Assembly: GCA_965208835.1 (NCBI GenBank)
Contig: OZ242358.1
Span: 4,128,001 to 4,192,000, forward strand
Source: Candidatus Latescibacterota bacterium
GTDB lineage: Bacteria; Latescibacterota; UBA2968; GCA-2709665
Direction of reading: 5' to 3'
DNA length: 64,000 bases
Below are positions 41,119 through 64,000 of the stretch, piece by piece. The notes under the pieces were generated by a model. The model searched no databases and was not told the origin of the DNA. It saw only the letters and a list, made by a program, of their open reading frames with translations. A program made the position numbers and the translations under genes. Positions within the stretch are counted from its first letter, which is position 1. The number at the start of each line of letters is the position of its first letter.

Positions 41119-43098
41119 TCAATACCACTTGTGAACGACGTGCCCCCGATTCGGAAACCATATTGCGTCCACGACCATCCCCGCCGTCACGGCGAGGATG
41201 TATCCGACGAGCATCCCCAGGAAAAACGGCATCGACCGCCGGTAGAACGCCACCCCGCCCGTCTTCAGCATGATCAGCTTCACCAGCCACGCCACCAGGA
41301 GCGTGGACCCCATGCGGCGCGCCGCCGGGATGCCGGACAGCGCAAACCCGATCGGGTGTAACGGCCACCTGGCGAACCGGTAGCGCATCAGATTCACAAG
41401 GACCATCGCCACGGCGCCGATCAGCAGAAACCAGTAATCGATCGCCTGCATCCTCGCCGGGTTCAGGATCTCGTTTACGGTCATCCCGTACTGCCATTCG
41501 CCTTCGTGGATGATCAGCCAGTTGGGTCGGAAATTGTAGGCGCCCACGTGGTATCCCAGCCAGATCGTGTACAACGTCGAGCTGATCACACCCACGACAA
41601 ATGCCGCGAACACACCCCAGAATAGCCGGCGTTTGTCCGTTCCGACGAAATCGCCCAGGCGGTTGATCTGCGCGACCAGCGGCATGATGAAGCTCCTGGG
41701 ATGGCTGACGGTGAATGACAGCATGCCGAAGGTCGCGCGCGTGGACGCATTCAGGGCTCCCGCGCCGCCAACCAGCGCGCCCGAGAGTTCCCATGCGGAC
41801 GCGGGCGGCTGGATATAGATGATTCCCGAATCGGCCACGACCTTGGCCACGAAGAGATAGGCGATGAACATCGTCGGAATCAGCAGGGCGATCATCCCGG
41901 CCTCCACCCCTATCCGCCCCAGAAACGCCGCGATGTAAACGCAACTGCCCAGAAGGCCGATCAGCGCTGCCCGATAGGAGAGTAATTCCCGGCCGACGCC
42001 GGGCGAAGACCCGCGCGCGTGAAGCGCACCCCGGACGACTTCGCGCAGGTGGTGCCGGGAGATCCAGATCCACCAGAAAACCAGCGACACGAACGCTCCG
42101 GCCGCCTGCCACTTGTAGGTCGTGGTGGTATAGGGCCCGGCGCCGTAGTGCGGCGAGGTGGCGACGATTCCTATGCGATTCAACGCGCCCGCTTCGATCA
42201 TGTACACGAAGTCGAAGAACCAGATGCTGAAGAGCACGTCGAGGCTCGCGAAATAGGAAAAGCAGATGACGGGCGTGCTGAGAAAGATGAAAAACGGAGG
42301 ATATTCTTTGGGAAGGAGGTCCCAGATGAAGCGACCGGTTGCCGTGGGGAAGCTGGGTACCATCGGGTAGAACCAGGCGATCATGTTCCACCAGAAGACG
42401 ATCGACGTCAGCGCGAATCCGGCCCAGAACACCTTGCCCTTCATGAACTCCGGCAGCCACCTCTCTCCGGACCCGGCCCGCGATGCCATCTCCAGAACCG
42501 GAGCAAGCGCCGGGTACACCAGCTTTTCATGGTCGGCCCACTGGCGGTGCAGGAGAACGGAAATACAGATACATGTAAAGCCCAGTACAAAAACAAAAGA
42601 GAGCCACCAGATCAGCGGAAGCCCCCAGACGTCCCAGGGAATCGACGCTCGACCCGGCAGCCCTTCATAGAACCAGGACATCGCCCGGCTATCGTTTGTC
42701 GGGATCAGCCATCCAGGCAGGTGCGGGTGGAGGTACTCGGTCCACCGGTTCTCCGGCGTCGCGAAATAGTGCGGGGACGCCATCATGCCCACCAGGTAAC
42801 CGCTGACCCCGTAGTTGGGCCCGATGGCGCTGATGACTCCCATGCTGAAGACCGTGATCCATTCAGACGGCGACAGGACGAAAGCGGTCCCGAACCTTCT
42901 GGCGAGCAAGGCGCAGCCCAGAATCGACACAAGGCACAGCAGCAGCACGCCCATCGGAATCTGGGCGACCATCATGTACGACCCCTTCTGGATGTAGCGG
43001 GCCGTACAGGCCAGCACGCTCATGGCCATCGCAATGCACAGACCGATTACGATCGACCGAAGCGTCACACGCGCTTCCGGCTGTTTCTCGCCTCTCAC
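41119..43098 (-). CDS. DUF6785/DUF6784 polytopic membrane protein (putative OPT-related transporter), copy 1
   Basis: YFATPENRW, RQWADHEKLVYP, WPLHPIG, PFFLG; many TM helices. Confidence 0.75.
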   Translation of the reverse strand: MRGEKQPEARVTLRSIVIGLCIAMAMSVLACTARYIQKGSYMMVAQIPMGVLLLCLVSILGCALLARRFGTAFVLSPSEWITVFSMGVISAIGPNYGVSGYLVGMMASPHYFATPENRWTEYLHPHLPGWLIPTNDSRAMSWFYEGLPGRASIPWDVWGLPLIWWLSFVFVLGFTCICISVLLHRQWADHEKLVYPALAPVLEMASRAGSGERWLPEFMKGKVFWAGFALTSIVFWWNMIAWFYPMVPSFPTATGRFIWDLLPKEYPPFFIFLSTPVICFSYFASLDVLFSIWFFDFVYMIEAGALNRIGIVATSPHYGAGPYTTTTYKWQAAGAFVSLVFWWIWISRHHLREVVRGALHARGSSPGVGRELLSYRAALIGLLGSCVYIAAFLGRIGVEAGMIALLIPTMFIAYLFVAKVVADSGIIYIQPPASAWELSGALVGGAGALNASTRATFGMLSFTVSHPRSFIMPLVAQINRLGDFVGTDKRRLFWGVFAAFVVGVISSTLYTIWLGYHVGAYNFRPNWLIIHEGEWQYGMTVNEILNPARMQAIDYWFLLIGAVAMVLVNLMRYRFARWPLHPIGFALSGIPAARRMGSTLLVAWLVKLIMLKTGGVAFYRRSMPFFLGMLVGYILAVTAGMVVDAIWFPNRGHVVHKWY

Positions 43099-43104
43099 GA
43101 TACC

Positions 43105-44445
43105 TTACTCATGGTCTTCCTTTGCGGCCGCCAACGGATTGATCCAGACGACGGCCCTGGTCCCCCAATCCGTGGACATGACATCGTCGTAACCGTCACC
43201 GTCCAAATCCGCGAGACGGACGATATTCGGCCAGTTGAGGCCCGCGCCGTCGCCGAGACGCGTCGCCTCCCACATGGTTCCATCTCCCCTGACGTTCCGG
43301 AACACGTAGACCCCGTCTCCCCCGTCGGAGGGCACCACGATATCCAATCGCCCGTCCCTGTCCACGTCTCCGAGGTCGAAGGAATAGGCGTGGCCGAGGC
43401 CACCGGCAATCCTATGGAATTTCCACTCCATCCCGGGTCCCAGGCGCTCCCGCCATGCCAGATACCCGTTTCTGAGACTGGTCTCGACACAGTCCAGGTC
43501 CCCGTCCCCGTCGAGGTCCGCAAATCGCGCATGGACCTGGGAAAGGGGTTTGTCGGAAAAGCCTGCGACCCATCGCCGCACCGAATCGGGCGATTCCACG
43601 CGGATGGAATCCCGCTTCCACCCGGTCCCCTTTCCATCGGTATTGATCAGGAGAAACGGCCGGGACGCGTGTTCGGAGGCGCACACAAGGTCCAAATCCC
43701 CGTCCAGGTCCACGTCGCCCGCGTCCACGCCGATGATGGGAGGCAGGTCCACGCGAATCGGCATTTCTTCCCAGGGCTCCGATTCGCTGCTGTTCTGACG
43801 AAACCACCCCACTTTGTGGCCCGACTCCGAGATGGAGGTGACCACAACGTCGTCGAGGTCGTCTCCGTCGACGTCCGCAACCACGGCCCTGACCGGAAGC
43901 TCGAGCGCTTTCGACCTGAGACTGAGTTTTCTCCAACTCTCCCCATCGGAAGTCTCGTATATCACGGTCTCGCCCGACAGATAGCAGGGGACCACAACGG
44001 CCGCGTTCCCTCCGGCAGTGCGGCGTACGACAACGGCGTCTTTCGGCGTGACCTGCCGGTCGTCCAGTGGACGAATACGAAACGCCAATCCTGAATCCGG
44101 CGGAGGCGCTAGGTTCTCCAGCCAGTAGACCATGCCGTACTCACGGTCCTCGTCCGGGATCTTTTCCCCGCCCGATTGAAAGGCCACGACGAGGTCCAGG
44201 TCGCCGTCCCGGTCGAAATCGGCCGCGTTTATGCCGTAGGAATTGGTCCCCGCGAGCGTTCCGCCCTCGCCGTCACGCAGATCGACGGACTTCCATTTCG
44301 CGGCCGCGTCGGCGCCGAATCCCCTGATATCGGGGCTGAGGGCCAGAATCTCGCGAGGGACCTGGGCGGCGGCGGAAACGGCGACGGCGCAGGCAACGGC
44401 CGCGACGATTCCCGGCCACAACGCCCGGAAGTCGAAACGCGCCAT
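43105..44445 (-). CDS. Secreted FG-GAP/VCBS repeat protein
   Basis: Signal peptide; six DxDxDGxxD-type repeats; TGATG coupling to the upstream gene. Confidence 0.82.
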   Translation of the reverse strand: MARFDFRALWPGIVAAVACAVAVSAAAQVPREILALSPDIRGFGADAAAKWKSVDLRDGEGGTLAGTNSYGINAADFDRDGDLDLVVAFQSGGEKIPDEDREYGMVYWLENLAPPPDSGLAFRIRPLDDRQVTPKDAVVVRRTAGGNAAVVVPCYLSGETVIYETSDGESWRKLSLRSKALELPVRAVVADVDGDDLDDVVVTSISESGHKVGWFRQNSSESEPWEEMPIRVDLPPIIGVDAGDVDLDGDLDLVCASEHASRPFLLINTDGKGTGWKRDSIRVESPDSVRRWVAGFSDKPLSQVHARFADLDGDGDLDCVETSLRNGYLAWRERLGPGMEWKFHRIAGGLGHAYSFDLGDVDRDGRLDIVVPSDGGDGVYVFRNVRGDGTMWEATRLGDGAGLNWPNIVRLADLDGDGYDDVMSTDWGTRAVVWINPLAAAKEDHE

Positions 44446-45665
44446 CACGGCCTCCCCGGCATCTTCGTCGTGTGGATGCGCCCCCCGATCCCGCCCAAGT
44501 CCGCCGGCATCTTTCCTGAAGGACGATCCGCTCCGGGCCGGAAGTCCGGGACCCTGACGACCCTGGACCCTTCCTCGATCGAATCCACGGCCAGCACCGC
44601 CGGAGCCATCGAGTCCATCACCCGGTACACGTCGTACTCGAGCGCCTCTCCCTTGAGGATGGCGTCTCTGAAATACATGTGCACGTAGTAGTCGGCGTCG
44701 CCGTGGCCGCTTCCCCGCGCCTCCGGGGGCGCGTCGGTCCGCCGGTACTGCCAGTCGACCTCCATCCAGTCGTTCATCTGCGTGTCCGCCAGCCACAGTT
44801 TCGGCTTTTCCTTTCCGGACCGCCGCCACTCCACGCTTCCCTTCGTGCCGATCATCTGCCACCAGTGGTGGTCGCCGTGCGGCCTGGGCTGGTTGAACCC
44901 GTTCAGCATCCGGATCAGCGTGTCGTTCTCCGTCTTCATCAGCGCCACCTGAATATCCGCGTTGAGCATCTCCGGCGTCGTATAACTGGGCGGCCTGGTG
45001 CTCATCGACGTTACCTCGATCACGCGGTCCTCCAGGATCTTCAGCAGTATGCTCAGATCGTACGAAGCGGAGATGATGTACGGCAGGTATTGCGGACTGG
45101 CGGGCTCGGCCTCAGGGTGGTCGGCAAGCGCCTCAACCGGGTAATTCTTGCCGGTATTGTAATCCTGGAACCACTGATGGGTGCCGTAGTAACCCAGGTA
45201 CTGACCTTCGGCATAGGTGATTTTTCCCAGCATTCCGTCGTCCACCAGCTTCTTCCACCCGTCCACGAACCCCCAGAACCTCGTCTGCTCCGCCAGGCTG
45301 TACACCAGCCCCGTCCGCTCCACGTTCGTGACGATACGCCAGCATTCCTCCATCGTATATGCCGCGGGCACCTCGGCGTTGACGTGCTTGCCCGCCTCAA
45401 GCGCCTCGGCGGCCATGGTTCCCTGCTCCAGCTGCCTCACCACCAGACCCACAGCGTCTATACCCTCGTACGCCAGAAAATCGTAGTAGTTGCTGAATAC
45501 CTTTACGTCGTCGCGATAGGCAATTTCTGCCAGCGCCCGCTCCTGGAGCGGCTCGATCCAGTCGTAGATGGCCGTGATCCGGTAACCCGGGGCGCTCTGA
45601 AGCAGCCGGATCCAGTGCAGCCCGCGGTGGCCCAGCCCGGCAACGCCTATTCTGATCTCATCCAT
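44445..45665 (-). CDS. Gfo/Idh/MocA oxidoreductase, GH109-like, copy 1
   Basis: GVAGLGHRG, GKHVNAEVPAAYTMEECW, SGHGDAD. Confidence 0.85.
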   Translation of the reverse strand: MDEIRIGVAGLGHRGLHWIRLLQSAPGYRITAIYDWIEPLQERALAEIAYRDDVKVFSNYYDFLAYEGIDAVGLVVRQLEQGTMAAEALEAGKHVNAEVPAAYTMEECWRIVTNVERTGLVYSLAEQTRFWGFVDGWKKLVDDGMLGKITYAEGQYLGYYGTHQWFQDYNTGKNYPVEALADHPEAEPASPQYLPYIISASYDLSILLKILEDRVIEVTSMSTRPPSYTTPEMLNADIQVALMKTENDTLIRMLNGFNQPRPHGDHHWWQMIGTKGSVEWRRSGKEKPKLWLADTQMNDWMEVDWQYRRTDAPPEARGSGHGDADYYVHMYFRDAILKGEALEYDVYRVMDSMAPAVLAVDSIEEGSRVVRVPDFRPGADRPSGKMPADLGGIGGRIHTTKMPGRP

Positions 45666-45839
45666 CGATGCCTCCATTCAAGTTGGCGATTTCGCCCGTT
45701 GAAGCCTAGAACGTCGAATTCCTGCAGACGCGCGCCGCCAGCCAACGCTTCGTGCAGGATAACTGATGCCCGGGATCGTTCCGGATTGCACCGGCGTACC
45801 ATTGGTACTCCGGTCGCGTACACATGATCCGCCTGCTGG

Positions 45840-46757
45840 TCACACGGGATTGCGCTCGCAGCCCAGCGCCTGCGCTATCGCCCGGATGTGCGAGGGGCCC
45901 GCGCCGCAGCACGCGCCGATGAAGTTGATGCCCTCGGCCCTGGCCTTCAACGCGTATTGGGCCATCTCGCTGCCCGAGACGATCATCGACTCGCGAATGA
46001 CTGAATTGTTGGGGCCTGCATTGCGATACCCCTGCGGCTGATATGCGATGGGGATGTCCACGGCTTCCCGCATCGCCAGGACCCCCGGCCACATGGTCAT
46101 TGAATCGCCGGAGCAGACGAGGCCGACGATATCCGCACCTTCGTCCGCCAGGACCTTCGCGCACTCCGCCGGCGTGGCGCCGTCGTGCGTCCGGCTGCTC
46201 GAGCCCATCAGTACCATCGCGGGCACGTCGGTTTTCTTACAGCGCGACAGGCACAGCCGGGCTTCGTCCAGCCGGGCGAACGTCTCCGGCACGAGCAGGC
46301 CGGCGCCCGCGTCCACCATCCAGGAAATGTGCTCGTCCCACTCCGCGCATGCCCGCTCGCGCGCCTGCGCATTGTCCGGCCGGTATATGTGCGGCCCCGT
46401 CCAGGACCCCGCGGCTGTCTGGTTCAGGCAGCCGGCGACCAGGGCTTCGCCGCCGGACGCCTCGATGGCCAGCCGGATTGCCGTGCGGGAAATCTCCTCC
46501 AGACGCGCGGCCTCCCCGCTCGGGCCGGCGCCCTGTTCGTAGCGGCGTTCGAGTTGCGACCGGCTGGTCCACCAGGTCTGCGCCTGCAGCACATGGGATC
46601 CGGCCCGAAAGAAATCCTGGTGGATCTGGCGCAGCGCGTCAGGATCTTCAAGGATCATGGCCGGGGTATCGTAACCCCGCCACCTCGCCTCGATGATCAT
46701 TCCGCCGTCGCTCAGAACGACGCCCTCCTCCAGCATCTTCAATATGTCCATGCCCAT
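45840..46757 (-). CDS. Homocysteine S-methyltransferase (BHMT-like), zinc ligands intact
   Basis: VLSDGG, IHQDFFRAG, PETF, GLVC, IGACCG; start 46757 or 46751. Confidence 0.88.
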   Translation of the reverse strand: MGMDILKMLEEGVVLSDGGMIIEARWRGYDTPAMILEDPDALRQIHQDFFRAGSHVLQAQTWWTSRSQLERRYEQGAGPSGEAARLEEISRTAIRLAIEASGGEALVAGCLNQTAAGSWTGPHIYRPDNAQARERACAEWDEHISWMVDAGAGLLVPETFARLDEARLCLSRCKKTDVPAMVLMGSSSRTHDGATPAECAKVLADEGADIVGLVCSGDSMTMWPGVLAMREAVDIPIAYQPQGYRNAGPNNSVIRESMIVSGSEMAQYALKARAEGINFIGACCGAGPSHIRAIAQALGCERNPV

Positions 46758-46836: not shown

Positions 46837-47772
46837 TTATCGCGGACGGAGTTCGATGTGTTTCCGCTCGCAGTCCAGCGCCTGCGCCATTGAGCGCAGG
46901 AGCCGGATCACCACCCCGTCCGATCCACCCACGAAGCGGATATCGTGGGCGACCGCCTTCAACGCATACTGCCCCATTTCAATCCCGTAGACGTGCATGG
47001 CTTCCCGCATGGTCTTCCAGTGGCCCCGGCACGTGCGGTACCCATTCGGCAGAAAGGCGATCGGCGCGTCCACCGCGTCACGCATTTCCAGCACCACGGG
47101 CCACAGGTCCTCCGGTTCCCGCATGCCGCCCGCACCCACGACGTCCGCGCCGTCGCCTGCCAGAACGCGCGCGCACTCGGCAGGCGCGGCGCCGTCGGCG
47201 GTCATTTCATCCTCGCCAAGCGCCGGTTTGTTCAATCTTCCCTCGGGCAATGCGATGTCCACCGTCACCACAACCGGCAACCCGCTGCCCTTGCAGCACG
47301 CCAGCGCCAGTTGCGCCTCGTCGAGCCGGCCGAATGACTCGCAGACGAGCAGATCCACGCCCGCGTCCGCCAATATGCCGGCCTGTTCCTCCCACTCCGT
47401 CCGGGCGCGGTCCGCGGAACCCGCGTCATCAGCCTGAAAGGCCCCCGTTGGCGCCAGTGTTCCAGCCACGAGCGCCTCCCCTCCTGCCGCACCCTTCGCC
47501 AGCGCAACGGCCGTCCGGTTCATTTCGTCGATCCGGTCGGCCGCATTTCCGTTCTCCCCTGCGCCGAGCCCGGTTCGGGTGCACCGACCCGTCAGGGCTC
47601 TGATAACGCCGGCCCCGGCCCTGAAAAAATCCTGGTGAACCAGGCGCGCGGCATCCGGGAAGTGCTCGAGCGCCGACCGCGCCGAATATCCCCGGAGGCG
47701 CAACTCCTCCACGTTTCCCCCGTCGGCCAGCACGAATCCTTTCTCAAGCTCCTTAAGAATGGACTCCGGCAT
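46837..47772 (-). CDS. Homocysteine S-methyltransferase-fold protein lacking the zinc-binding cysteines
   Basis: VLADGG, VHQDFFRAG, CESF; GAGG replaces GxxC and GGSDG replaces GGCCG. Confidence 0.8.
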   Translation of the reverse strand: MPESILKELEKGFVLADGGNVEELRLRGYSARSALEHFPDAARLVHQDFFRAGAGVIRALTGRCTRTGLGAGENGNAADRIDEMNRTAVALAKGAAGGEALVAGTLAPTGAFQADDAGSADRARTEWEEQAGILADAGVDLLVCESFGRLDEAQLALACCKGSGLPVVVTVDIALPEGRLNKPALGEDEMTADGAAPAECARVLAGDGADVVGAGGMREPEDLWPVVLEMRDAVDAPIAFLPNGYRTCRGHWKTMREAMHVYGIEMGQYALKAVAHDIRFVGGSDGVVIRLLRSMAQALDCERKHIELRPR

Positions 47773-48041: not shown

Positions 48042-50045
48042 TTAGTGCCAGCTGTGTACCCTGTGACCCGAATGCGGGAACCAGATGGCGTCCACGACCG
48101 TGCCTGCGATCACCGCAATGATATATGCCGTCAGAATCCCGATGAAAAAGGGCAGCGAACGCCGGTAAAACGCCGTGCCGCCGATCCTGAGCATGAGGAA
48201 CTTGATCAGCCACGCGACCAGAAGCGTAAGGCTTTCCAGCCTGGCGAATATCGTACCCGAAAGTGCGAACCCTACCGGGTGCAGGCGCCACCTGGGCAGC
48301 CGGTACCGCATGACGTTCAGGGCAGTCATGATAACGACTCCCGCGAGAAACAGCCAGTATTCCACCGCCAGGATCGGCCGGGGGTTGCGCAACGCGTCCA
48401 CCGCCAGGCCGTAGTTCCATTCACCCTCGTGAAGAATCAGCCAGTTCGGCTGAAAATTGTACCCGCCCATGGTGTAGGCCAGCCAGACCGTATGGAGCGT
48501 CGAAACCACCGTACCGACCATGAACGCCCCGAAGATTCCCCAGAAAAAGCGCCGCTTGCCTTCGGGTATGAAGTCTCCCAGACGGTTCACCTGCGCGATC
48601 ATAGGCAACGCGAAACTCCTGGGGTGGTTGACCGTGAACGGCAGCAGGCTGGAGGCGGCGTTCGTCGACGGGTTCAGCCTGTGCGCACCGCCCAGCGCAA
48701 ACAGCGCATAGTCCCAGGCCACCGCAGGAGGATCGACGTACACCAGCCCCGAGTCGGCGACCACCTTCGCCACGCCCACGTACGCGATGAACATGGCCGG
48801 CGTCAGAACCAGGATCATTCCCGGTTCGATGCCTATCCGCGATAGCCAGGCCACAATGTAGACGATGCAGACGACCAGCCCGAGAACGGCCGTACGATAG
48901 GATATCCACTCCCTGCTGTCATCCAGGGCGGAACCACCGGGGCGGAATGCCTTCCGGAAGACCTCGCGCAGGTGCCCGCGGGAGATCCAGAGCCACCAGA
49001 CAACCAGCGCCGCGAAGGCGCCCGCCGTCTGGAACTTGTAGCTCGTGAGGTTGTACGGGCCGGAACCGTAGTGCGGGGACGTCGCCACCACGCCGAGTCG
49101 ATTCAGAAGGCCGGCTTCAATCATATAGAGGACGTCGAAGAACCAGATGCTGAAGAGTACTTCCAGGTTGGCGAAATAGGAAAAACAGATGACGAAGACG
49201 CTCAGATAGATGCAGAACGGGGGATACTGTTTGGGCAGGAGATCCCAGATATAGCTCATGCGGGTGTTCATCACCTTCGGAAAGGTGGGATAGAACCAGT
49301 GCACCATATTCAGCCAGAAGACCGCCGACGTGAGTCCGAATCCCGCCCAGAACGCCTTTCCCTTCATGAATTCCGGAAGGACGCGCGCCCCGGTCCCGCT
49401 CCGGTTCGCCATCTCCAGGACGGGCGTCAGCGCGGGATAGACCAGTTTTTCGTGGTCCGCCCACTGGCGATGCAGAATCACCGACACGCAGACACAGGCG
49501 AACCCCAGAACGGCGATAAAGACGAACCACCAGAGCAGCGGCCCCCACCAGTCGTGCCAGGGAATGGACATCCCGTTCGGGAGCCCTTCGAAGAACATGG
49601 TGATGGACCGTTGTTCGTCCGTCGAGATCAGCCAGCCGGGAAGGTGCGGGTGCAGAAACTCCGACCACCGGTTCTCGGGCGTGGCGAAGTAGTACGGAGC
49701 CACCATCTGGCTCACCAGATACCCGCTGATCCCATAGGTGGGGCCCATCGCGCTGATCAGGCCCATACCGAAAATCGTGATCCATTCCGCGGGCGCCAGC
49801 ACGAAACGGCCGCCGAACCACCGGGCAAGCGCCGCGAAGATCAGGATGGAAACCAGAAAGAGGAGAAGGTCGCCCATCGGGATCAGGCTGATGGCCATGT
49901 ACGACCCGTGCTGGACGTAACGCATCGTATTGGCGAGAAGATTGACGGCTACGGACAGCCCGAGCCCGAATATGACAGCGCGGGTCGTTACGCCCTGGCG
50001 CACGGGATGCTGTTTCCGCGTTTCCGCCGTGCTGGCGATGGCCAT
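48042..50045 (-). CDS. DUF6785/DUF6784 polytopic membrane protein, copy 2
   Basis: Full-length paralogue of 41119-43098 (YFATPENRW, RQWADHEKLVYP, YNFQPNWL). Confidence 0.75.
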   Translation of the reverse strand: MAIASTAETRKQHPVRQGVTTRAVIFGLGLSVAVNLLANTMRYVQHGSYMAISLIPMGDLLLFLVSILIFAALARWFGGRFVLAPAEWITIFGMGLISAMGPTYGISGYLVSQMVAPYYFATPENRWSEFLHPHLPGWLISTDEQRSITMFFEGLPNGMSIPWHDWWGPLLWWFVFIAVLGFACVCVSVILHRQWADHEKLVYPALTPVLEMANRSGTGARVLPEFMKGKAFWAGFGLTSAVFWLNMVHWFYPTFPKVMNTRMSYIWDLLPKQYPPFCIYLSVFVICFSYFANLEVLFSIWFFDVLYMIEAGLLNRLGVVATSPHYGSGPYNLTSYKFQTAGAFAALVVWWLWISRGHLREVFRKAFRPGGSALDDSREWISYRTAVLGLVVCIVYIVAWLSRIGIEPGMILVLTPAMFIAYVGVAKVVADSGLVYVDPPAVAWDYALFALGGAHRLNPSTNAASSLLPFTVNHPRSFALPMIAQVNRLGDFIPEGKRRFFWGIFGAFMVGTVVSTLHTVWLAYTMGGYNFQPNWLILHEGEWNYGLAVDALRNPRPILAVEYWLFLAGVVIMTALNVMRYRLPRWRLHPVGFALSGTIFARLESLTLLVAWLIKFLMLRIGGTAFYRRSLPFFIGILTAYIIAVIAGTVVDAIWFPHSGHRVHSWH

Positions 50046-51987: not shown

Positions 51988-52093
51988 CGTACACTCCACG
52001 CTGCCTGCAAGGCCGGCGTGCATGGGATCAACACGCGTTCATGGCGCGCGGCGACCATCCGTCAACGATAGGAGACCATTCCGAAAAACCGGC

Positions 52094-55889: not shown

Positions 55890-56864
55890 TCAGAACGATC
55901 CGGTCACCGAGAACCGCAGGGTCCCGCCGTTGTCGGGGAAATTGTCGAACTTCACGTAGGCGATATCCGCCTGCACGTGATGAATGCCGCGCTGAATCCG
56001 GACGCCCGCCCCGGCGGTAACGTCCTGCGCGTCGTAACCCAGCTTGTAACCGGCCCGAAGCGCGACGATGTTCCGCAGCCAGAGTTCGGCGCCCACGTGC
56101 ATCCGCCGTTCGACGCTGACGCTGTAGAGCGCCTCGACCGCGCCGGTCAGCGAGACGTCTTCCCCGCGTTCCCCGTAGACCTCAGCCGCGGTTGCCATGC
56201 TGAAGAAAACCGGCATCTTGCCCTTGATGGCTTCGTCCGTGAGGAGTACGAGGTCCTTCCCGAAGTTGCGCAGCGACATGCCGATGCGCAGGCTCCGGTA
56301 TCCGGTATGGTAGAACGTGCCGACCGCCAGGTCGAAAACGCGGTAATCGTAACCCGTGTCGAGCTTTTCCTCGATCACCCGCGCCTGGAATCCCACCGAG
56401 AAGCGCTCGGTAAACTGCCTGGCATAGACCCCGCCCACCGCCCAGCTTCCGGTGTCCAGGATCCGGCCGGTTCCCTCCGGATTGAAAATGGTGGTTTCTT
56501 CGATATCGCCCGTATTGAACGCCACCAGACTCAGGGCGAGGGCGCCGTAGTCCGTATTGACGCCGATCGCCGCGGAGTTCAACTGGGACTCCAGGAGCCA
56601 CCTGGTGTTCGTGAATGCGAACTGGAGCCGATTCGGCGTCATGGCCGTGAGCCCTGCGGGATTCCAGAACACGGAATTGATGTCGTCCGCCACGGCCACG
56701 TACGCGTCGCCCATCCCGGCGGCGCGCGCGCTCTGGGAAATTTCCAGGAAGGCCGCGTAGGTCTCGCCCACCGGGGTCTGGTTGGAGATGTCGGCCAACG
56801 CCGGGGCGCCCAGCAAGAGGACGCCGACAAGTGCCGCAAAGCCGATCCGATATATGCGCCTCAT
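55890..56864 (-). CDS. PorV/PorQ family outer-membrane protein
   Basis: FLEI..SARAAGMG, FWNPAGL, LRAGYK; terminal Phe. Confidence 0.85.
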   Translation of the reverse strand: MRRIYRIGFAALVGVLLLGAPALADISNQTPVGETYAAFLEISQSARAAGMGDAYVAVADDINSVFWNPAGLTAMTPNRLQFAFTNTRWLLESQLNSAAIGVNTDYGALALSLVAFNTGDIEETTIFNPEGTGRILDTGSWAVGGVYARQFTERFSVGFQARVIEEKLDTGYDYRVFDLAVGTFYHTGYRSLRIGMSLRNFGKDLVLLTDEAIKGKMPVFFSMATAAEVYGERGEDVSLTGAVEALYSVSVERRMHVGAELWLRNIVALRAGYKLGYDAQDVTAGAGVRIQRGIHHVQADIAYVKFDNFPDNGGTLRFSVTGSF

Positions 56865-56874: not shown

Positions 56875-59403
56875 TTAGCGAATGATGACCAGCTTGGCGC
56901 CCTTCACCTGTCCCTGGGATTCCGACACCAGGGACTCGACGGTGACGAAGTACACGCCGAAGGTCAACTGCGTGATGTGCGTTCTGTTGAACTGGAAGAA
57001 GGCTGCTTCGCCCTCTGTCTGCGAATCGTGGTCGACTTCGCCCACCAGGTCGCCGGCTACCGAGAAGATCCTGATCTTGGCCTTCCTGGGGACATTCAGG
57101 ATGCGGATCTTGGTTGAGCCCTCGTAGGTGTGCGGCGACTCGGGGATGTACGGATTCGGCACAATGAGGATATCCTTTTCCAGCCGGTCCGCGCTGGCCG
57201 TGGGCACCTGCACGGGGCTGTCGGGCGCCGCTCCCGAGGGGGGCAGATAGTACGTGGAAACGTCTCCGATTCCGGATTCGTAGGCCCGGACACCGCCCTC
57301 CACCGTGGCGCCCGTAACCCGGCTGGCGAATCCGGAATTGGCGCTGCCCTGGTAGGAGCGCACGGCATAGTAATACTGGAATCCCGCGAGCGACTCCGTG
57401 TCTTCGTACGCGTATTCCGCGGAGCCGTTCGCCGGTACGTCCTGGATCATCTTCCAGAGGCCCGGCTGGGTCTCGGACTGGTAGACGCGGTAGCCCGCCA
57501 CGTCGGATTGCCCGGTATCCGGATTGATCGACTTCTCCGGGTCGCCCTTCCAGGTAATCAGGTTGCGGGCGTTCTCGGACGAGGACACCGTCGCGTCCAC
57601 GTCGGGAGGCTGGTTGGGCAGGTCGTAACCCAGCGCATAGGCCTCCTTGGCTTTATTGAGGTGGTTGAGCAGATTGGTGAACGCGGCGCCGTTCTCTTCC
57701 TTCTTGAGTTCGCTGGTGTCTCCCGACTTCTGGTAAGCCCGGAAGTTCTCCGTAACCGGTGCGGCCGCCACGTAGGCAAACACGAACTTCACCTTCTGGC
57801 CGGGCACCAGGTCATAGGGGCCGTATGTCTCCAACGGGGTGTAGCCCGCGGCGATGCCGTGCCGCCCCTCCCACTCCCAGGTGGGGATGGGCATATACGG
57901 CATTGGACCTGACGGAACCGCCGGAATCGGGAGCAGCGGCACGCCCAGGTTGGGATTTCCCGAACCCCTGCTCGGGCGTTCCAGAAGCGGTTCGTTGAAA
58001 TAGGACGGTTCCGGCGTGCTGATCAGCATCTGGTAGAGCGTCTCGTGGTTCATCTCATTCGGGTTCGGTTCGTCCGTGAGTAACCCGACGGCGGCCGCCG
58101 CGCTGGACGGATACCGGTACAGAAAATGGAAGAAGTTGTACGAGAACGGCTGCTCAGGAACCTTCGGCGCCTCGTAGGTCTCCGGATCGCCCACGAACCC
58201 GTCCGTGGGATCCACGTCGATCGGGGCCTTGCCGATCCATGCCGGGGACGTGATGTCCCCGACGCCGATAAGACTTGGGAACGTGCACTGCGCGCACCTG
58301 TGTTCGGAGCGGTACGGATCGCCGATATCGTCCGCCAGCGGCCCTGTCAGGCAGAAGTTGTCCCAGTCGTACTGGTACGTCAGCCGGAGGCCGCGCGCGG
58401 ATGCCGGACCGTCGTAATTGGGCGCCTCCGTATACTTGATCTTGTCGTCCTGGGAATTGTCCAGGGGTCCGAAATTGCTGCTGCACCCGTCTCCCGTGCC
58501 GTAGTCGGAATAGTACGCCCTGTAACTGACCCGGGAGACGCCCGCGGATGACGGCAGGAACCGGTGATGGAAGGAAAAATAGACGTTCGTGAGATTGTGC
58601 CCGCCGCCGGCGAGGTCGGCCGCGCGATCGCCGTCGGTATCCCCGGTGTTCTCGAATACCCACTCGGTGATCACGAAATCGTCGTAGTCCGGGTGGTTCC
58701 ACGCAAAGGCCGCCTTCTCACCCGTAATGCCCAGCCCGGTGGTCCACTTGCTCAGAACGATGTCTTCAGGAAAATTGTCGGTGGAAACGTCGTTGTACTG
58801 GCCGATGCGGTAATTCAGGATTTCCCTGGGTTCCAGCGCATCCAACTCCACCCCGGTGCCGGGCCACCAGTTGGCCATCGATCGCCCCGAATTGGGGCTG
58901 ACCACGTCGCTGCCCAGCCCCGCGTACTTGCCCCTGAAGTCCACGCTGGGATCCACCGCCATCGCCACGACGTCTTCGCTTTCTTCCATCGCCGATATGA
59001 GGGGGTTGGCCCAGCTCACCGCGGCCTCGCCGTTCACTCTGGTGGCGATCCACCATCCGTGGCCGCGGCCGTTGTGCGACGTCAGATCCACGTGCATGCT
59101 CCCGGCGCTGCGCTGTTCCCCGTAGTAGGCGGAAAAGTCGTTCGTTCCGCCGCCGCCCCAGCTGATCAGCGCGAACCCCGGATAGGCCAGATCCAGATAG
59201 AGGCCGGCATAGTTCCCTTCCACCGGCCGAGCCCCTTCGGCGCCCGTGCTGAGAAAGCTGTGCCAGAGGGTGCCGCGCGCGAGGTGCCGGGGCGTTAGCG
59301 ATTCACCGGCCAGGTTGGAGATGGTCGCCCGCTGGGCCTCGGCCGGACGCCAGAACGCGCCTGCGATCAGGAGTGCGCCTGTAATGATGGTTATGCGTCT
59401 CAT
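56875..59403 (-). CDS. Secreted protein with an FN3-like domain and a T9SS-type C-terminal sorting domain
   Basis: Signal peptide MRRITII...AEA; VAGYRVY...YYYAVRSY; VPNPY...IRIFSVAGDLV...GVYF...KLVIIR. Confidence 0.75.
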   Translation of the reverse strand: MRRITIITGALLIAGAFWRPAEAQRATISNLAGESLTPRHLARGTLWHSFLSTGAEGARPVEGNYAGLYLDLAYPGFALISWGGGGTNDFSAYYGEQRSAGSMHVDLTSHNGRGHGWWIATRVNGEAAVSWANPLISAMEESEDVVAMAVDPSVDFRGKYAGLGSDVVSPNSGRSMANWWPGTGVELDALEPREILNYRIGQYNDVSTDNFPEDIVLSKWTTGLGITGEKAAFAWNHPDYDDFVITEWVFENTGDTDGDRAADLAGGGHNLTNVYFSFHHRFLPSSAGVSRVSYRAYYSDYGTGDGCSSNFGPLDNSQDDKIKYTEAPNYDGPASARGLRLTYQYDWDNFCLTGPLADDIGDPYRSEHRCAQCTFPSLIGVGDITSPAWIGKAPIDVDPTDGFVGDPETYEAPKVPEQPFSYNFFHFLYRYPSSAAAAVGLLTDEPNPNEMNHETLYQMLISTPEPSYFNEPLLERPSRGSGNPNLGVPLLPIPAVPSGPMPYMPIPTWEWEGRHGIAAGYTPLETYGPYDLVPGQKVKFVFAYVAAAPVTENFRAYQKSGDTSELKKEENGAAFTNLLNHLNKAKEAYALGYDLPNQPPDVDATVSSSENARNLITWKGDPEKSINPDTGQSDVAGYRVYQSETQPGLWKMIQDVPANGSAEYAYEDTESLAGFQYYYAVRSYQGSANSGFASRVTGATVEGGVRAYESGIGDVSTYYLPPSGAAPDSPVQVPTASADRLEKDILIVPNPYIPESPHTYEGSTKIRILNVPRKAKIRIFSVAGDLVGEVDHDSQTEGEAAFFQFNRTHITQLTFGVYFVTVESLVSESQGQVKGAKLVIIR

Positions 59404-59464
59404 TGATTTTCTCCCCGCCTGTTTGCGCCGGGGCAGCCGCGCCGCCCCGGCGTCAGATACATAC

Positions 59465-62400
59465 CTAGAAACCGATCCGCACGCCCGCATTCACGTACCT
59501 CGGCGTTCCGCCGCGCCTGAAATTCGAGTCGCCGTACTTCAGGTAATTGGTGTCGTTCGGCGTGGGCTTCTTCAGGCCCCAGCGCACATAGTTGGAGCCG
59601 GAGGAGCCGTCGTAGAAGGTATTGAACAGGTTGAACACCTCCGCGTACAACGTGGGGGTGGTTTCCCCGATCCTGAACGACTTCTGGAAGTTGAGGTCGG
59701 TCCGGACGAAAATCGGACGGTTGCGGACGGTCTGCACGCTCGTCCCGGGAAGCGTGATCTGGAACTGCCGCCCGTTGTCCAGCCGCCAGACCACGTTGGC
59801 CTGGATGCCGCCCAGGATTTTGGCGCCGCCGATTTCTTCGCCCGGCCCCCAGTCCATCGGCGTGGACCAGAGGAACTGGAAGGAGGCATTCGTGGTGGGC
59901 GGCTGCCCCCGGAACGCGTCCACCTGGCGCCAGACGTCCTCGAACCAGAGGTTCTGCATTTCCTGCTTCTCTGATTCGCTCAGGCCGGGATATTCGCTCC
60001 AGGGACGTATCGCATCGAGCCGGTTCGTGCCCCACCCCCCGACGAAAGTCGTCCCGTCCGCCTGTTTCTTGCGGATCGCCTCGTTCGCCCTGTGGCCGAT
60101 CGTCCGGATTTCATCGTCGGTCAGACGAACAATTTCGTCATTCGCATCGACCGTGAAGTATTTCGAACTGGCAATGAAGTTGGAGTCCGGAAACGTCGTA
60201 ACCTGAAGCTGTGAACCGCCCGACCAGTTGAAGAGCACCCAACTCACGTCCAGGCCCACCCGGAATGAGAAGTTGTTGGAAAATGCCTTCGTGAAACCCA
60301 TCTCGATACCCTTGGTTTCCAGGCGGGCGTTGGGACCGCGGTGACCCACGTAGGTCAGGGTCTGCACCGGATCCGAGAACCGATGCACCCCGCCCGAACC
60401 AACCCGTTCGGTCCGGCGGTAGTAGGTGGAAAGCTCCATCACGAAGTCGCTGACGAAGTTCCACTCCCCGGTCACCTCGAACTCGGCGGTACTCGGCAAC
60501 CCCCCCGGGTTCTGATAGCCGCCGTCGAGGCGCCACTGCCCGCCCCCGATCCAGTTCAGATCGAACCAGACGTCGTCCAGTTCGGGGTGGTTCTGGGCGT
60601 CGGACGTGGTCCAGGGCTCCAGCCACAGCAGGGAGAATTGCGGAGGTTTGTAGTACACGCCGTATGAGTACCGAACGGTGGACCGTTCGGTAATTGGATG
60701 TGACAGACCGATCCGCGGCGACAGGCTCGTCATCGGCCGCGTCTTCGCCAGCGGCACCCGCCCCGTGCGCCAGGCCTTGTAGGTCCTCCAGCCCGGCAGT
60801 GCCTTCATAAAGCCGGACAGAGTCCGCTCGGGCCCGCCCCAGAAGCTGTCGAAGCGAAGGCCTGCGTGCAGCACGAGGCCCTGGAACTCCAGCTTTTCGT
60901 CCACGTACGCGGCCAGCCGGTTCACCGTATACCGCTTGCCGGGCTCGCTGTTGCCGGCCATGATCTTGAGCGTGGCGTTGGTCGCGCTGGACCGGTTGTA
61001 GTCCCAGTTGAGATTGCTCATGTTCTGAAACACGAAACCGGCCTTGAAGAGATTCCGCCGGGTGAGCTGACCGGTGAAGTCGTACCGCAAGCTGTACCTG
61101 TTGTTGTCTTCCACGACGATGCGCCTTCGCTCCCGATCTATATTGAATTGGCCCAGCTTGTCTCTTCGCCATGAGGTTGTCGTGGCGTCCACGTCTTCAC
61201 CCGGGTCCGTCTTCGTACCGTAGTACCCCACCTGGAATTCGTGGAACATCCGGGGGTTGATGCTCTGGGTGCCCGTTACGTAGAAGATCCGGTTGACCCG
61301 GTTCTGCTGGTAACCGGTCGTGCCGTTGATGAGGAAGAGGTTGCCCCCCACCGAACGGTTGGCGTCGCCGAAGAACGTGGGCTCGTTGGACTGATTGAAG
61401 CCCACCTTGACCTTGAGGTTCGGCGACGGGGTGAAGCTGATTTTCCCGAAGATGCTGTGCTGCCGCAGCCCCGTCAGCGTGGGCGCGGGCAGATTGATCT
61501 TGGCGCGGCTGGTTTTGCCGCTCACCACGAACGTGGCGTTCTCGCCCAGAGGACCGCTGACCCATCCCTCCACGAAATGTCCGACCGAACTCTCGTAGTC
61601 CTGCTTGACGTGGATCTGCTGTCCGGTTTCCGGATCCTGTTCGTTCACCCATTCGGGGTTGTTCCACTGCAGCCTGTCGCGCCAGTACCCGTTCGCCCCG
61701 CCGCGCTGCCCCGGCGTGGCGTCGTATATGTTGGCGCCGCGGTGCCGCTTGCCGGGCAATTCCACCCGGAGGTCGAGGCCGCCGCGGTAAATCCGCGTAC
61801 CCTCCCTGCTGATGATGTTCACCACGCCAGCGGGCGACGAGGCCTGTGAGGCGTCCGCCCCGCCCCTGACCAGCCCCATCTCCCCGACGGCGGTTACCGG
61901 CAGGTTCGTGTATTGCCGGACACCCGTCTGCTGCGAGGTGTCCAGGTTCATCAACTCGATGCCGTCGAAGGTCCAGGTCTGCGCCGCGCGCATCGAATAA
62001 TAGCTCATATGCCGGATGCGCACGCCGTTGCCGGGACTGTCGTTCACGTTCGTACCCACGGCGTACTGAAGGTGCTCCCTGACGCCTCTGATGATGGGGA
62101 CCTGTTCGATCTCCTGCGAGGATATCTTCGCCTCGCTGGACGTCCGGTCCACCTCCACCAGGGGCCGCTCGGCCCTCACCACGATTTCCGCGGCCTCCAG
62201 CGCCGATTCCCGGAGCGTGAAATCGGACACCGTCGTCAGGCCCGCGGCCACCTTGACCCGTTCCCGAATCACCGCCTCGTAACCGACAATCGATGCCTTC
62301 AGGGTGTATAGCCCGGGCTCGACACCGATAATGACGTAATACCCTTCGCTGTCGGACGTCGCTCCGAAGCGCGTCCCTTCCACCACGACGTTGGCTCCGG

Positions 62401-62527
62401 GCAGGGTCTCGCCGTCCGCGTCGGTCACCTGTCCGGTAATCTTGCCGTAGAAGGTCTGGGACTGCGCCGGCTCCGCCAGCAGGCATAGCGCCGTAATGAT
62501 GCCCAAAACCAAAAATCCACGCCTCAT
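59465..62527 (-). CDS. TonB-dependent receptor with N-terminal carboxypeptidase-regulatory-like domain
   Basis: AAGGAG SD at MRRGFLV; GKITGQVTD...LPGANV; GVVNII plug; SPRIG; FNLFN; terminal Phe. Confidence 0.88.
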   Translation of the reverse strand: MRRGFLVLGIITALCLLAEPAQSQTFYGKITGQVTDADGETLPGANVVVEGTRFGATSDSEGYYVIIGVEPGLYTLKASIVGYEAVIRERVKVAAGLTTVSDFTLRESALEAAEIVVRAERPLVEVDRTSSEAKISSQEIEQVPIIRGVREHLQYAVGTNVNDSPGNGVRIRHMSYYSMRAAQTWTFDGIELMNLDTSQQTGVRQYTNLPVTAVGEMGLVRGGADASQASSPAGVVNIISREGTRIYRGGLDLRVELPGKRHRGANIYDATPGQRGGANGYWRDRLQWNNPEWVNEQDPETGQQIHVKQDYESSVGHFVEGWVSGPLGENATFVVSGKTSRAKINLPAPTLTGLRQHSIFGKISFTPSPNLKVKVGFNQSNEPTFFGDANRSVGGNLFLINGTTGYQQNRVNRIFYVTGTQSINPRMFHEFQVGYYGTKTDPGEDVDATTTSWRRDKLGQFNIDRERRRIVVEDNNRYSLRYDFTGQLTRRNLFKAGFVFQNMSNLNWDYNRSSATNATLKIMAGNSEPGKRYTVNRLAAYVDEKLEFQGLVLHAGLRFDSFWGGPERTLSGFMKALPGWRTYKAWRTGRVPLAKTRPMTSLSPRIGLSHPITERSTVRYSYGVYYKPPQFSLLWLEPWTTSDAQNHPELDDVWFDLNWIGGGQWRLDGGYQNPGGLPSTAEFEVTGEWNFVSDFVMELSTYYRRTERVGSGGVHRFSDPVQTLTYVGHRGPNARLETKGIEMGFTKAFSNNFSFRVGLDVSWVLFNWSGGSQLQVTTFPDSNFIASSKYFTVDANDEIVRLTDDEIRTIGHRANEAIRKKQADGTTFVGGWGTNRLDAIRPWSEYPGLSESEKQEMQNLWFEDVWRQVDAFRGQPPTTNASFQFLWSTPMDWGPGEEIGGAKILGGIQANVVWRLDNGRQFQITLPGTSVQTVRNRPIFVRTDLNFQKSFRIGETTPTLYAEVFNLFNTFYDGSSGSNYVRWGLKKPTPNDTNYLKYGDSNFRRGGTPRYVNAGVRIGF

Positions 62528-62673: not shown

Positions 62674-63339
62674 TCATTCGCCCGCGCCGAAGTCCCCCGC
62701 GAAGCTGACAAAGTCCAGGAAGTTGATGGTGTCGTCTCCGTTCAGGTCGAAAACCGGATTGAATTCCGGGTCGCCCCGGCTCCTTCCGAATGCCGCTGCG
62801 AAACTCTCGAAGTCTGAATAGTCGACCTTCCCGTCCGCGTTGAAGTCCGACCGGTGACGCGAAGTCACGGGAATGCTGCTGAAGACTCCGGGATTGCTCA
62901 ACGACAGGATCCGTCCCGGCGCCGGGTCGCCGACCCGCCATGCGCCTGTCGGATCGCCGAGTTCCATGCCGTTCGTGAATCCGTCCCTGTCGGAGTCGAG
63001 CAACGCCAGGCTTGGCCCCCACACCACGTTTCCGGAATACCCGGCCTGGGACAGAAACCCGCTCTTTATCGTCACACCGAAGGCGTTCAGAGGGCCCCCG
63101 CCGCCCGTGTACGTGTGGCAACTGGCGCAGATCGCGTCGCCTTCGTCTACGGCTTCATGCGTCAACTCGGATAGCGGGATGTCCAGCCTTGTCGTTGTCC
63201 TGCCCCTGTCGACGTGGCAGGTGCGGCACCGGGCCGCGTTGGCGTTGGGGACCTGAAAAACCCTTTTGGGCCGCGCCTCGGTTTCCGGGCGGACCAGGAA
63301 TACGAGTATGAGCACAAACGCTGCGGTCCGGGCGCTCAT
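62674..63339 (-). CDS. Secreted protein: temptin-like domain with two CxxCH motifs plus a dockerin-like double EF-hand
   Basis: CRTCH, CASCH; GPLNAFG...DSDRDGFTNGMELGDP; DFNADGKVDYSDF...DLNGDDTINFLDF. Confidence 0.75.
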   Translation of the reverse strand: MSARTAAFVLILVFLVRPETEARPKRVFQVPNANAARCRTCHVDRGRTTTRLDIPLSELTHEAVDEGDAICASCHTYTGGGGPLNAFGVTIKSGFLSQAGYSGNVVWGPSLALLDSDRDGFTNGMELGDPTGAWRVGDPAPGRILSLSNPGVFSSIPVTSRHRSDFNADGKVDYSDFESFAAAFGRSRGDPEFNPVFDLNGDDTINFLDFVSFAGDFGAGE

Positions 63340-64000
63340 TTATCGCATGAAGTACTTGACGCCGACCATCAGGTTGAAACTGAAAATCGGAAACGTCTTC
63401 TTCAGTTCCCAGTCTTCGTAGGGCCTCAATTCGCCCATGGATACGTTCCAGCGGACCCTGAAATCCACGAGAAACTGATCGGACGTGCGCCGGTAGAAGC
63501 CCAGCCCGGTGTTGATGGACAGCGCAACGTCCTCGTCCACCGTGGTTTCCACCATGCCCTGTGCATCCGTCCGGATCTGTTCACCCACCTGCCCCGGCCA
63601 GATCAGACCCGATACCTCGTGGGTATACCTTAAAAACCCGATGCCGGCCGCAATGTACGGAACGCTCTGCCCGACTTGGTCGGGCTTGAGACTGCGCAAT
63701 CCGTTGACCACGATGCCGCCGATCCACATATTTGCCTCGGCGCCGGGACTCTTTATCCTGGATCCGTTCGCGGCCCCGAGACCGTTGTGCCAGGTGAACT
63801 GCCGGTCGGACAGACCGGCGTCCGTCAGCGGCGAGTATGTCAATTCCACTTCCGTCATCGTTCTGTCGGACACCTGGTACGTCAACTGCCCGACAAACGC
63901 CGGCGAAATATTGTACCAGCCCTTGAGCGGCCCGGCGGGCCTCAGCATGGATCCGTGGACGCCAAGCGCGTAGCGCATCTCCTGAGCATGCGTGGCGGAC
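63340..64000 (-). CDS. Outer-membrane beta-barrel protein (5' end outside the window)
   Basis: PYIAAGIG, VDFRVRW, VGVKYF; frame open to the window edge; stop abuts the next ATG. Confidence 0.75.
   Translation of the reverse strand, partial: SATHAQEMRYALGVHGSMLRPAGPLKGWYNISPAFVGQLTYQVSDRTMTEVELTYSPLTDAGLSDRQFTWHNGLGAANGSRIKSPGAEANMWIGGIVVNGLRSLKPDQVGQSVPYIAAGIGFLRYTHEVSGLIWPGQVGEQIRTDAQGMVETTVDEDVALSINTGLGFYRRTSDQFLVDFRVRWNVSMGELRPYEDWELKKTFPIFSFNLMVGVKYFMR

Follow-up and report, generated by a model that had tools for sequence, protein, structure and literature searches.

The 64,000-nucleotide stretch of DNA described here (the window, C1:4128001-4192000 of the host genome, which is a single contig, C1, of 5.18 Mb) carries 15 genes on its minus strand, between positions 41119 and 64077, that combine an outer-membrane uptake cassette with three homocysteine S-methyltransferase homologs (HMT_a, HMT_b and HMT_c), two Gfo/Idh/MocA-type oxidoreductases (GFO_a and GFO_b) and two membrane proteins of the DUF6785 family. 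The gene set consists of our own codon-usage gene calls and the list of open reading frames, and domains were assigned by Pfam and NCBIfam. The first-pass annotation of the window had named 15 co-oriented genes with their domains, and all of them were recovered. The limits it had given, 41119 to 64000, are too narrow, as the first gene ends at 64077, which is 77 bp outside of the window, and the run of genes on the same strand extends to 30186 (24 genes, 30186-64077). The spacing had been called mostly tight, which is true for nine of the 14 junctions (80 bp or less), but the widest gap measures 269 bp. At the junction of GFO_b and the FG-GAP gene stop and start overlap by 4 bp, and the latter gene ends 6 bp ahead of DUF6785_b. 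Upstream of the first gene a gap of about 530 bp is followed by a divergent TPR gene. That the genes are co-oriented is in itself nothing unusual; what departs from chance is that gene families are paired repeatedly.

The host is an uncultured sponge- or coral-type Latescibacterota bacterium. Close relatives of its DUF6785 gene are found in metagenome-assembled genomes of Candidatus Latescibacterota and a few Gemmatimonadota, whose isolate names suggest sponge or coral, and metagenomes from sponges and from marine samples are among the DNA runs which contain the stretch.

The first gene of the cassette (63340..64077, on the minus strand like all genes of the run) encodes a small outer-membrane barrel of 245 aa with a weak match to OMP_myx_plus (E 9e-4). 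It is followed by a temptin-like secreted protein with a dockerin/EF-hand-like tail (62674..63339; Temptin_C 42.3 bits, Dockerin_1 24.3 bits), whose translation contains CRTCH and CASCH, two CxxCH haem motifs. Next come the SusC-like TonB-dependent receptor (59465..62506; its start is uncertain and may lie as far up as 63121), a secreted protein of 842 aa from an unannotated family (56875..59403) and, 10 bp after it, an outer-membrane barrel of the PorV/PorQ family (55890..56864; PorV_fam 177 bits, cut-off 90). A protein with TPR families and a GWxTD domain (53026..55800; GWxTD_dom 42.4 bits, cut-off 28) is encoded behind them. Signal peptides are present in the small barrel, the 842-aa protein, the GWxTD-TPR protein and the FG-GAP protein described below, and absent from the methyltransferases and oxidoreductases.

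Small barrel, receptor, secreted protein and PorV-type barrel follow each other in fixed order at five places of the genome, of which the locus is one. Each of the five small-barrel paralogs lies upstream of a receptor gene, and in all five copies a PorV-type gene follows that of the secreted protein. Four of the five copies have a DUF6785 gene at a distance of no more than about 6 kb, and GWxTD/TPR relatives adjoin at least three copies. Three other copies were compared and have no gene between barrel and receptor, unlike the temptin-bearing copy of the locus.

The assignment of the receptor, which the first-pass annotation had proposed, stands at the level of the family. A profile of five family members matches the plug domains of FepA/Cir (E 2.6e-13), and Pfam Plug is found in three of these five members, but the single sequence has no PDB match and no Pfam domain other than CarboxypepD_reg (67 bits). 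Only its N-terminal 111 positions match the NCBIfam SusC/RagA family, and its long barrel region gave no match by sequence. The locus resembles the SusC/SusD polysaccharide utilization loci (PULs) of Bacteroidota in its SusC-like receptor with an N-terminal CarboxypepD_reg domain, in the joining of this receptor to proteins of surface and periplasm, to an importer of the inner membrane and to enzymes of the cytoplasm, and in the repetition of the unit in the genome with changing cargo. It also differs from them. No SusD family is found among the Pfam and NCBIfam matches of the 15 proteins, the partner of the receptor being the protein with the CTD-like tail together with its own PorV-type barrel and the small barrel, and the cargo contains no classical glycoside hydrolase or lyase.

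The 842-aa protein had been described as CTD-bearing. Its tail is weakly similar to C-terminal domains (CTDs) of the type IX secretion system (T9SS). In the family, the last ~100 residues match the C-terminal end of PorZ in five of eight members (weak, best E 4.5e-4), while Por_Secre_tail/TIGR04183, the mark of T9SS cargo with a type A CTD, matches one of the eight (weak, E 0.0097); the protein of the window itself matches the PorZ tail only (weak, E 0.0027). It has no Pfam family, its look-alike clusters in the ESM Atlas are unannotated, with few recorded members from Gemmatimonadota, Bacteroidota and Ignavibacteriota, and an AF2 model from an alignment of eight sequences (mean pLDDT 45.3) was too poor for a fold search. 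Some T9SS proteins retain their CTD and are held by a barrel, as in the pairs PorZ-PorQ and PorU-PorV. The locus shares with these pairs a secreted protein with a weak PorZ-like tail followed by a PorV/PorQ-family gene, and the genome has a SprA-like gene; unlike them, the pair is embedded in a TonB-receptor cassette and the CTD match is weak. The SprA-like (T9SS translocon) match lies within an open frame of 2094 aa (C1:2523181-2524545). The 842-aa protein is probably a surface binding partner.

Between the envelope genes and the end of the locus two modules follow, which arose by tandem duplication: GFO_a and GFO_b are 76% identical, DUF6785_a and DUF6785_b 62%, and HMT_a and HMT_c 59%. The first copy comprises HMT_a, GFO_a and DUF6785_a, with a TonB gene (51277..52023; TonB_C 60.9 bits, N-terminal membrane anchor) between HMT_a and GFO_a. 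The second consists of HMT_b and HMT_c, GFO_b, the FG-GAP gene and DUF6785_b. The FG-GAP gene (43105..44448; FG-GAP_3 94.9 bits) encodes a beta-propeller protein that is predicted to be periplasmic or secreted.

The two DUF6785 proteins (DUF6785_a, 48042..50045, PF20581 340 bits; DUF6785_b, 41119..43098, PF20581 323 bits; both with DUF6784 in addition) are polytopic membrane proteins, for which an inner-membrane transporter had been suggested. This receives support at the level of the fold. An AF2 model of DUF6785_a, calculated from 21 paralogs and orthologs, reached a pLDDT of 85.9 and a pTM of 0.88, and Foldseek matched it to the barley Yellow Stripe 1 structures 7wst (E 1.6e-8) and 7wsr (E 2.1e-8) with TM values of 0.62-0.69. 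The remaining matches have E > 0.03 and TM near 0.1, the next one an E of 0.034 and a TM of 0.14. In this predicted model DUF6785_a is folded like the importers of the OPT family, and it is probably an inner-membrane importer. The overall fold is shared with Yellow Stripe 1 over about 690 aligned columns. Unlike these importers, the DUF6785 proteins form a separate Pfam family (DUF6785 plus DUF6784) at 12% sequence identity and are numerous, with 22 PF20581 matches in this one genome. These 22 genes have mixed catabolic neighbours, namely Gfo/Idh/MocA proteins, xylose-isomerase-like TIM barrels, heparinase-like proteins, amidohydrolases, aminotransferases, gamma-glutamyltranspeptidase, PhyH dioxygenases, M14 peptidases and giant M28/FtsX proteins, which fits a general importer family. 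The giant FtsX proteins (1511-1570 aa, one of them with an M28 domain) directly adjoin DUF6785 genes in three places (L045:11469-16181, L051:9214-13749 and L054:10922-15460).

All three methyltransferases score far above the PF02574 gathering cut-off of 22 bits: HMT_a (52094..52969) with 145.1, HMT_b (46837..47772) with 98.3 and HMT_c (45840..46757) with 126.9 bits. HMT_a, which is cytoplasmic, and HMT_c, the canonical copy, are zinc methyltransferases similar to betaine-homocysteine S-methyltransferase (BHMT), and in the alignment both retain the zinc Cys triad (VGLVC, GACCG) along with the motifs DGG and ETF. HMT_b had been noted as a Cys-less paralog, and it indeed reads VGAGG and GGSDG at these sites, so that all three cysteines are gone. 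Among solved structures the proteins of the locus are closest to rat and human BHMT (E 3e-26 to 7e-24; rat BHMT as best relative of HMT_a, 3.1e-26), and match the homocysteine module of Thermotoga MetH (1.6e-16) and MmuM (6e-8) more weakly. With BHMT (1umy, 1lt7, 4m3p) they share the PF02574 TIM barrel and, in HMT_a and HMT_c, the Cys triad and the DGG/ETF motifs of the homocysteine site. Unlike BHMT, with chains of 406-407 aa, they are only about 300 aa long and lack the C-terminal arm, one paralog has no zinc ligands, and they are encoded in an uptake locus.

The claim that these proteins are distinct from ordinary N-terminal modules of MetH could be upheld. No B12- or pterin-binding genes are present in the locus, and the genome has a split MetH set with separate B12-binding, pterin-binding and homocysteine-binding genes at C1:1231000-1240000, 2.9 Mb away. 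The only genes for pterin- and B12-binding modules are located at C1:1233078 and 1237658 (these two with their own HMT) and at 2169463, 4275000, 1608873 and 4360312. Judged by these comparisons the methyltransferases of the locus are neither canonical BHMTs nor pieces of MetH.

A tree of 35 rows unites HMT_a, HMT_b and HMT_c, two paralogs from a second cluster of the genome (see below) and orthologs from two families of the phylum in one clade with support of 96/95. Within it the zinc-less lineage, with members from the families f1 (that of the host) and f3, stands separate with support of 100/99. Of 21 distant loci chosen for the tree 17 entered it; four (L092, L101, L117 and L129) were lost to the trimming rule, and the row of L132 is bad and very long. 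The ratio of nonsynonymous to synonymous substitution rates (dN/dS) is 0.14-0.31 for HMT_b versus 0.05-0.18 for HMT_c. On these values HMT_b is a living gene under purifying selection in both families examined, with somewhat relaxed constraint, and it looks like a pseudo-enzyme. A putative fusion of HMT_b and HMT_c (an open frame of 657 aa in the genomes G059 and G060) was rejected, since in G060 it is an upstream frame overlapping a DUF6785 gene and the two HMTs are separate.

Further PF02574 genes of the host were noticed. A fusion of PF02574 with an S-adenosylmethionine (SAM)-dependent methyltransferase (582 aa; C1:2636488-2638236, L043:9488-11236) adjoins formate-dehydrogenase-like genes, and another HMT 4 kb downstream of it adjoins a dimethylformamidase-like protein, a thiamine pyrophosphate enzyme and a DAO oxidase.

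The two oxidoreductases (GFO_a, 50050..51246; GFO_b, 44445..45677) belong to PF01408 with scores of 37-49 bits (37 bits for GFO_a). The first-pass annotation had called them EVP-type and compared them to glycosidases of family GH109; the former is right, and shared motifs support the latter. GFO_a and GFO_b read EVP in place of the EKP of classic members, and in the HMMER alignment this motif coincides with EVP of AmGH109A (6t2b) and EVS of NagA (2ixa). The tyrosine of the EGQY motif (Tyr156) aligns with those of EAAY and TGGY in these two structures. The histidine loop reads GSGHGD versus GGHGGMD and GAGHGGMD in the GH109 structures, with the histidine kept and the glycines kept in part, and a C-terminal PDF motif (VPDF) is common to both. 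The catalytic roles in AmGH109A are assigned to Tyr226, His259 and His404, and the same paper cites a work according to whose title a conserved GGHGG loop contains the catalytic acid-base (PMC10755693). In our proteins His183 would be the counterpart of His259, as placed only through the family alignment. The host genome contains a dozen non-EKP paralogs with the same motifs, including the only gene that passes the cut-off of Glyco_hydro_109_C (56 bits), and in the ESM Atlas clusters nearest to GFO_a 76-100% of the members carry this domain. From these motifs GFO_a and GFO_b are probably GH109-like, NAD-dependent glycoside-cleaving enzymes. They share with GH109 and the related GH188 sulfoquinovosidases the Gfo/Idh/MocA fold, the replacement of EKP by EVP/EVS, the tyrosine of E-x-x-Y, the histidine of the G-x-G-H-G loop and the C-terminal (V/I/F)PDF. 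They differ in the GSGHGD loop in place of GGHGG, in the missing signal peptide and in a Glyco_hydro_109_C score below cut-off.

Two candidates concerning these enzymes were dropped. A twin-arginine signal on an oxidoreductase of the second cluster (g3049) proved to be an N-terminal extension without hydrophobic stretch. A role of the GFOs as substitute route for the recycling of S-adenosylhomocysteine (SAH) would require a gap, which does not exist: the genome lacks LuxS but has a gene for AdoHcyase.

The combination of these gene families is conserved in other genomes. In the stretches around DUF6785_a from 17 related genomes the locus is syntenic in all 17, with GFO_a, HMT_b, HMT_c and TonB present in each, GFO_b and the FG-GAP gene in 15, and HMT_a in eight. 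The HMT_b orthologs in these syntenic loci are 75-94% identical. A search of 168 genomes of the phylum found HMT_b orthologs of at least 75% identity in the host itself and in 17 of the 21 other genomes of family f1. Relatives from family f3, with 54-56% identity by tblastn, always adjoin HMT_c. One f3 genome (G038), with an HMT_b search match of 61%, has HMT_b and HMT_c next to DUF6785, an EVP-type oxidoreductase and a homolog of the 380-aa propeller-like protein encoded downstream of our locus, but in a different order. A second one (G039) carries the HMT_b-HMT_c pair (57%) on its contig C66, with no GFO or DUF6785 match within 12 kb around it, and GFO/HMT pairs on the contigs C151 and C57. 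The association is greatly amplified in G042, where a stretch of 38 kb contains HMT genes (about ten) alternating with Gfo-type genes (about nine). The pairing of methyltransferase and oxidoreductase recurs in four other genomes (G038, G039, G060 and G042), whereas in family f2 a GFO_a relative stands without HMT. In G060, which belongs to a sister genus, a flavin amine oxidoreductase gene follows HMT_c and replaces GFO_b and the FG-GAP gene (L142:12370-14451); its family also adjoins distant HMT relatives in Acidobacteriota. In the host genome three of the six EVP/EVS oxidoreductases are located within 5 kb of a PF02574 gene, a number reached in none of 20000 shuffles of gene positions, with the caveat that two of the three paired oxidoreductases lie in one duplicated locus and are non-independent.

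A second cluster of this kind is located 18 kb upstream (C1:4199000-4215400, 7 to 23 kb past the end of the window). It encodes three HMTs, two related oxidoreductases, an FG-GAP/ASPIC protein and cytoplasmic M14 and transglutaminase-like proteins, but a complete Opp-type ATP-binding cassette importer replaces the receptor and DUF6785. The occurrence of similar cargo with another importer indicates that cargo and import belong together. FG-GAP/ASPIC proteins adjoin importer genes not only here but also at C1:3597554. Directly upstream of the second cluster a defence-type island (C1:4216000-4226000; L041:6194-15744) contains HEPN, DUF433, Schlafen/Fic-like, PIN and type I restriction-modification genes.

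Downstream of DUF6785_b the same-strand run continues with a block (30186..40909, minus strand) in which are encoded a DegT aminotransferase, a classic (EKP) Gfo/Idh/MocA oxidoreductase, proteins of 604, 414 and 578 aa with no significant Pfam match, a propeller-like protein of 380 aa with weak Kelch/propeller matches and a polysaccharide-deacetylase-like protein. The block is probably linked to the locus. In 11 of the 17 syntenic stretches DegT follows DUF6785_b, and in five the classic oxidoreductase does, several stretches ending earlier; relatives of the 380-, 578- and 604-aa proteins adjoin HMT, GFO or DUF6785 genes in other loci. The 604-aa protein (36310-38124, minus strand) shows only a faint match to DUF4350, and its relatives adjoin DUF6785 or GFO_a-type genes at four places of the genome and in one genome of family f2. 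Below the run a heparinase II/III-like protein and two Amidohydro_2 proteins are encoded (24876-26984 and 28150-30072, both plus strand), and heparinase-like genes also adjoin two further HMT genes of the genome. Promoter-like sites (three, 4.1 expected by chance) and terminator-like sites (12, 13.4 expected) are not in excess. Between 28000 and 64000 no Rfam family was found at E <=0.1 and hence no SAM, SAH or B12 riboswitch.

How are these observations to be read? In our judgement, held with about even confidence, the genes constitute a PUL-like nutrient-utilisation locus for import, NAD-dependent cleavage and methyl transfer to homocysteine. A compound derived from host or prey would be bound at the cell surface and drawn through the receptor by the energy of TonB. 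In the periplasm the FG-GAP propeller might trim or bind it, and the OPT-like DUF6785 proteins would carry it over the inner membrane. Its sugar part would be cleaved or oxidised in the cytoplasm by the GH109-like enzymes, which would use bound NAD for oxidation and elimination, and the BHMT-like zinc enzymes would move methyl groups to homocysteine, yielding methionine, with zinc-less HMT_b as conserved non-catalytic or altered partner of HMT_c. The imported compound would probably be similar to a glycoside or glycopeptide and contain an amino sugar as well as an activated methyl group of the onium type. A hint at amino sugars comes from the DegT, deacetylase-like and classic oxidoreductase genes downstream and from a GFO_a paralog without HMT that adjoins a PIG-L deacetylase, a relative of the 604-aa protein and a major facilitator superfamily transporter (L141:7608-10143). 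An import-and-demethylation system had already been proposed in the first-pass annotation. The conserved linkage, the OPT fold and the GH109 motifs speak for it, as do the neighbours of distant HMT relatives described below, while methyl donor, glycosidase role and substrate are what we infer.

Several observations weigh against this interpretation. None of the HMTs reaches an NCBIfam equivalog cut-off (52.8-77.6 bits for the BHMT (EC 2.1.1.5) model PRK07534 with a cut-off of 338, 47.8-64.7 for the MmuM-type PRK09485 with a cut-off of 215). The five-residue loop which bears Trp44 in BHMT is missing from all three of them, and the position of Tyr77 is a Phe in the alignment; as Trp44 and Tyr77 are residues of the betaine site, glycine betaine is doubtful as methyl donor. 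For Glyco_hydro_109_C GFO_a and GFO_b reach 19.4 and 15.8 bits with a cut-off of 27, and with scores in the range of 14-19 bits these enzymes may be mere dehydrogenases. GFO_a also has close paralogs that stand without HMTs, among them those in family f2. The HMT_a ortholog is missing in nine of the 17 syntenic loci, and gaps of 162-269 bp within the block allow separate transcription. Finally, the association is restricted to two families of one phylum: the 65 loci with distant HMT relatives have one DUF6785 neighbour, which is from Latescibacterota, and no EVP-type oxidoreductase.

These distant relatives, 35-40% identical and found in Acidobacteriota, Actinomycetota and other phyla, can also be taken for another explanation, which we consider rather improbable. 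The HMTs could harvest methyl groups from free osmolytes such as betaines, dimethylsulfoniopropionate or S-methylmethionine taken up by DUF6785, with cassette and oxidoreductases as mere neighbours. A survey of 47 neighbour proteins from 25 loci found flavin amine oxidases (five loci), DAO-type oxidases (five) and amino-acid permeases (three), more rarely FMN/Pyr_redox dehydrogenases (two), one GCV_T protein and one Rieske oxygenase. Neighbours of these kinds are what one would expect around betaine-type demethylation. Small compounds derived from amino acids are substrates of OPT-family importers, and the internal gaps of the locus and the dispensability of HMT_a would agree with a loose assembly of this kind. 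However, the pairing of HMT and EVP-type oxidoreductase outlasts reordering and amplification in the four other genomes and the change of the importer in the second cluster, the betaine-binding loop of BHMT is absent, and a housekeeping split MetH is already there.

Likewise improbable, and to a similar degree, is that the GFOs are ordinary sugar or cyclitol dehydrogenases and that the HMT/GFO pair performs some other two-step reaction, for example an O-demethylation, without need of oxygen or cobalamin, of methylated sugars or of compounds of cyclitol type such as mycosporine-like amino acids by oxidation beside the O-methyl group and transfer of the methyl to homocysteine. The nearly one-to-one alternation of both gene types in G042 would fit such a reaction, as would the low Glyco_hydro_109_C scores and a weak NCBIfam similarity of the GFOs to inositol and sugar 3-dehydrogenases. 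But the lysine of EKP is replaced and the GH109-type tyrosine and GHG loop are present. Methyl ethers are poor methyl donors for a zinc thiolate, and no precedent for the reaction was found.

It is quite unlikely that homocysteine, rather than a methyl group, links the two enzyme families. S-adenosylhomocysteine hydrolase works by oxidation followed by elimination, and by analogy the GFOs could act on sugar conjugates linked through sulfur and free a thiol, homocysteine or one like it, for methylation by the HMTs. One shared intermediate would explain the tight pairing, and one GFO_a paralog without HMT adjoins an inosine-uridine nucleoside hydrolase and a beta-lactamase-like protein (L140:4966-5865). 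Against this, the AdoHcyase gene of the genome is normal, no candidate substrate is known and a methyl donor would still be required.

A role of the cluster in building or remodelling a glycan of the cell surface, instead of in feeding, is hardly credible, as the downstream DegT, classic Gfo/Idh/MocA and deacetylase-like genes and the surface location of secreted protein and PorV-type barrel are all that suggest it, while the 22 scanned proteins of the 24-gene run include no glycosyltransferase, flippase or polymerase family, TonB, its receptor and two importer-fold proteins point inward, and the cassette adjoins varied catabolic enzymes elsewhere.

The PUL-like uptake locus is still our preferred reading. 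A bolder form of it is that BHMT-like zinc methyltransferases and GH109-like enzymes, paired one to one, carry out in the cytoplasm an undescribed demethylation of imported sugar-bearing compounds from host or algae, independent of cobalamin and oxygen, in which the methyl groups are banked as methionine and HMT_b serves as pseudo-enzyme partner; the locus would then be one for methyl harvesting. This we propose tentatively and hold to be possible rather than probable. In a literature search, which left subscription journals mostly outside, no description of the gene combination was found, nor a paper on DUF6785, a paper joining homocysteine S-methyltransferase with polysaccharide utilization, or anything linking Latescibacter, sponge, homocysteine and betaine; a paper on Latescibacterota of sponges (PMC12993501) contains none of the terms looked for in it.

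Uptake loci are usually read by their hydrolases and lyases, whereas here the conserved cargo consists of betaine/methionine-type methyltransferases and putative redox-type sugar-cleaving enzymes. If HMTs and GFOs act on one imported compound, this would be a catabolic step new to textbooks, and methyl transfer to homocysteine would join the enzyme repertoire of glycan and glycopeptide breakdown. It would also give a testable role to DUF6785 and to a phylum-specific branch of the BHMT family, and would suggest how host material supplies sponge symbionts with carbon as well as methyl groups.

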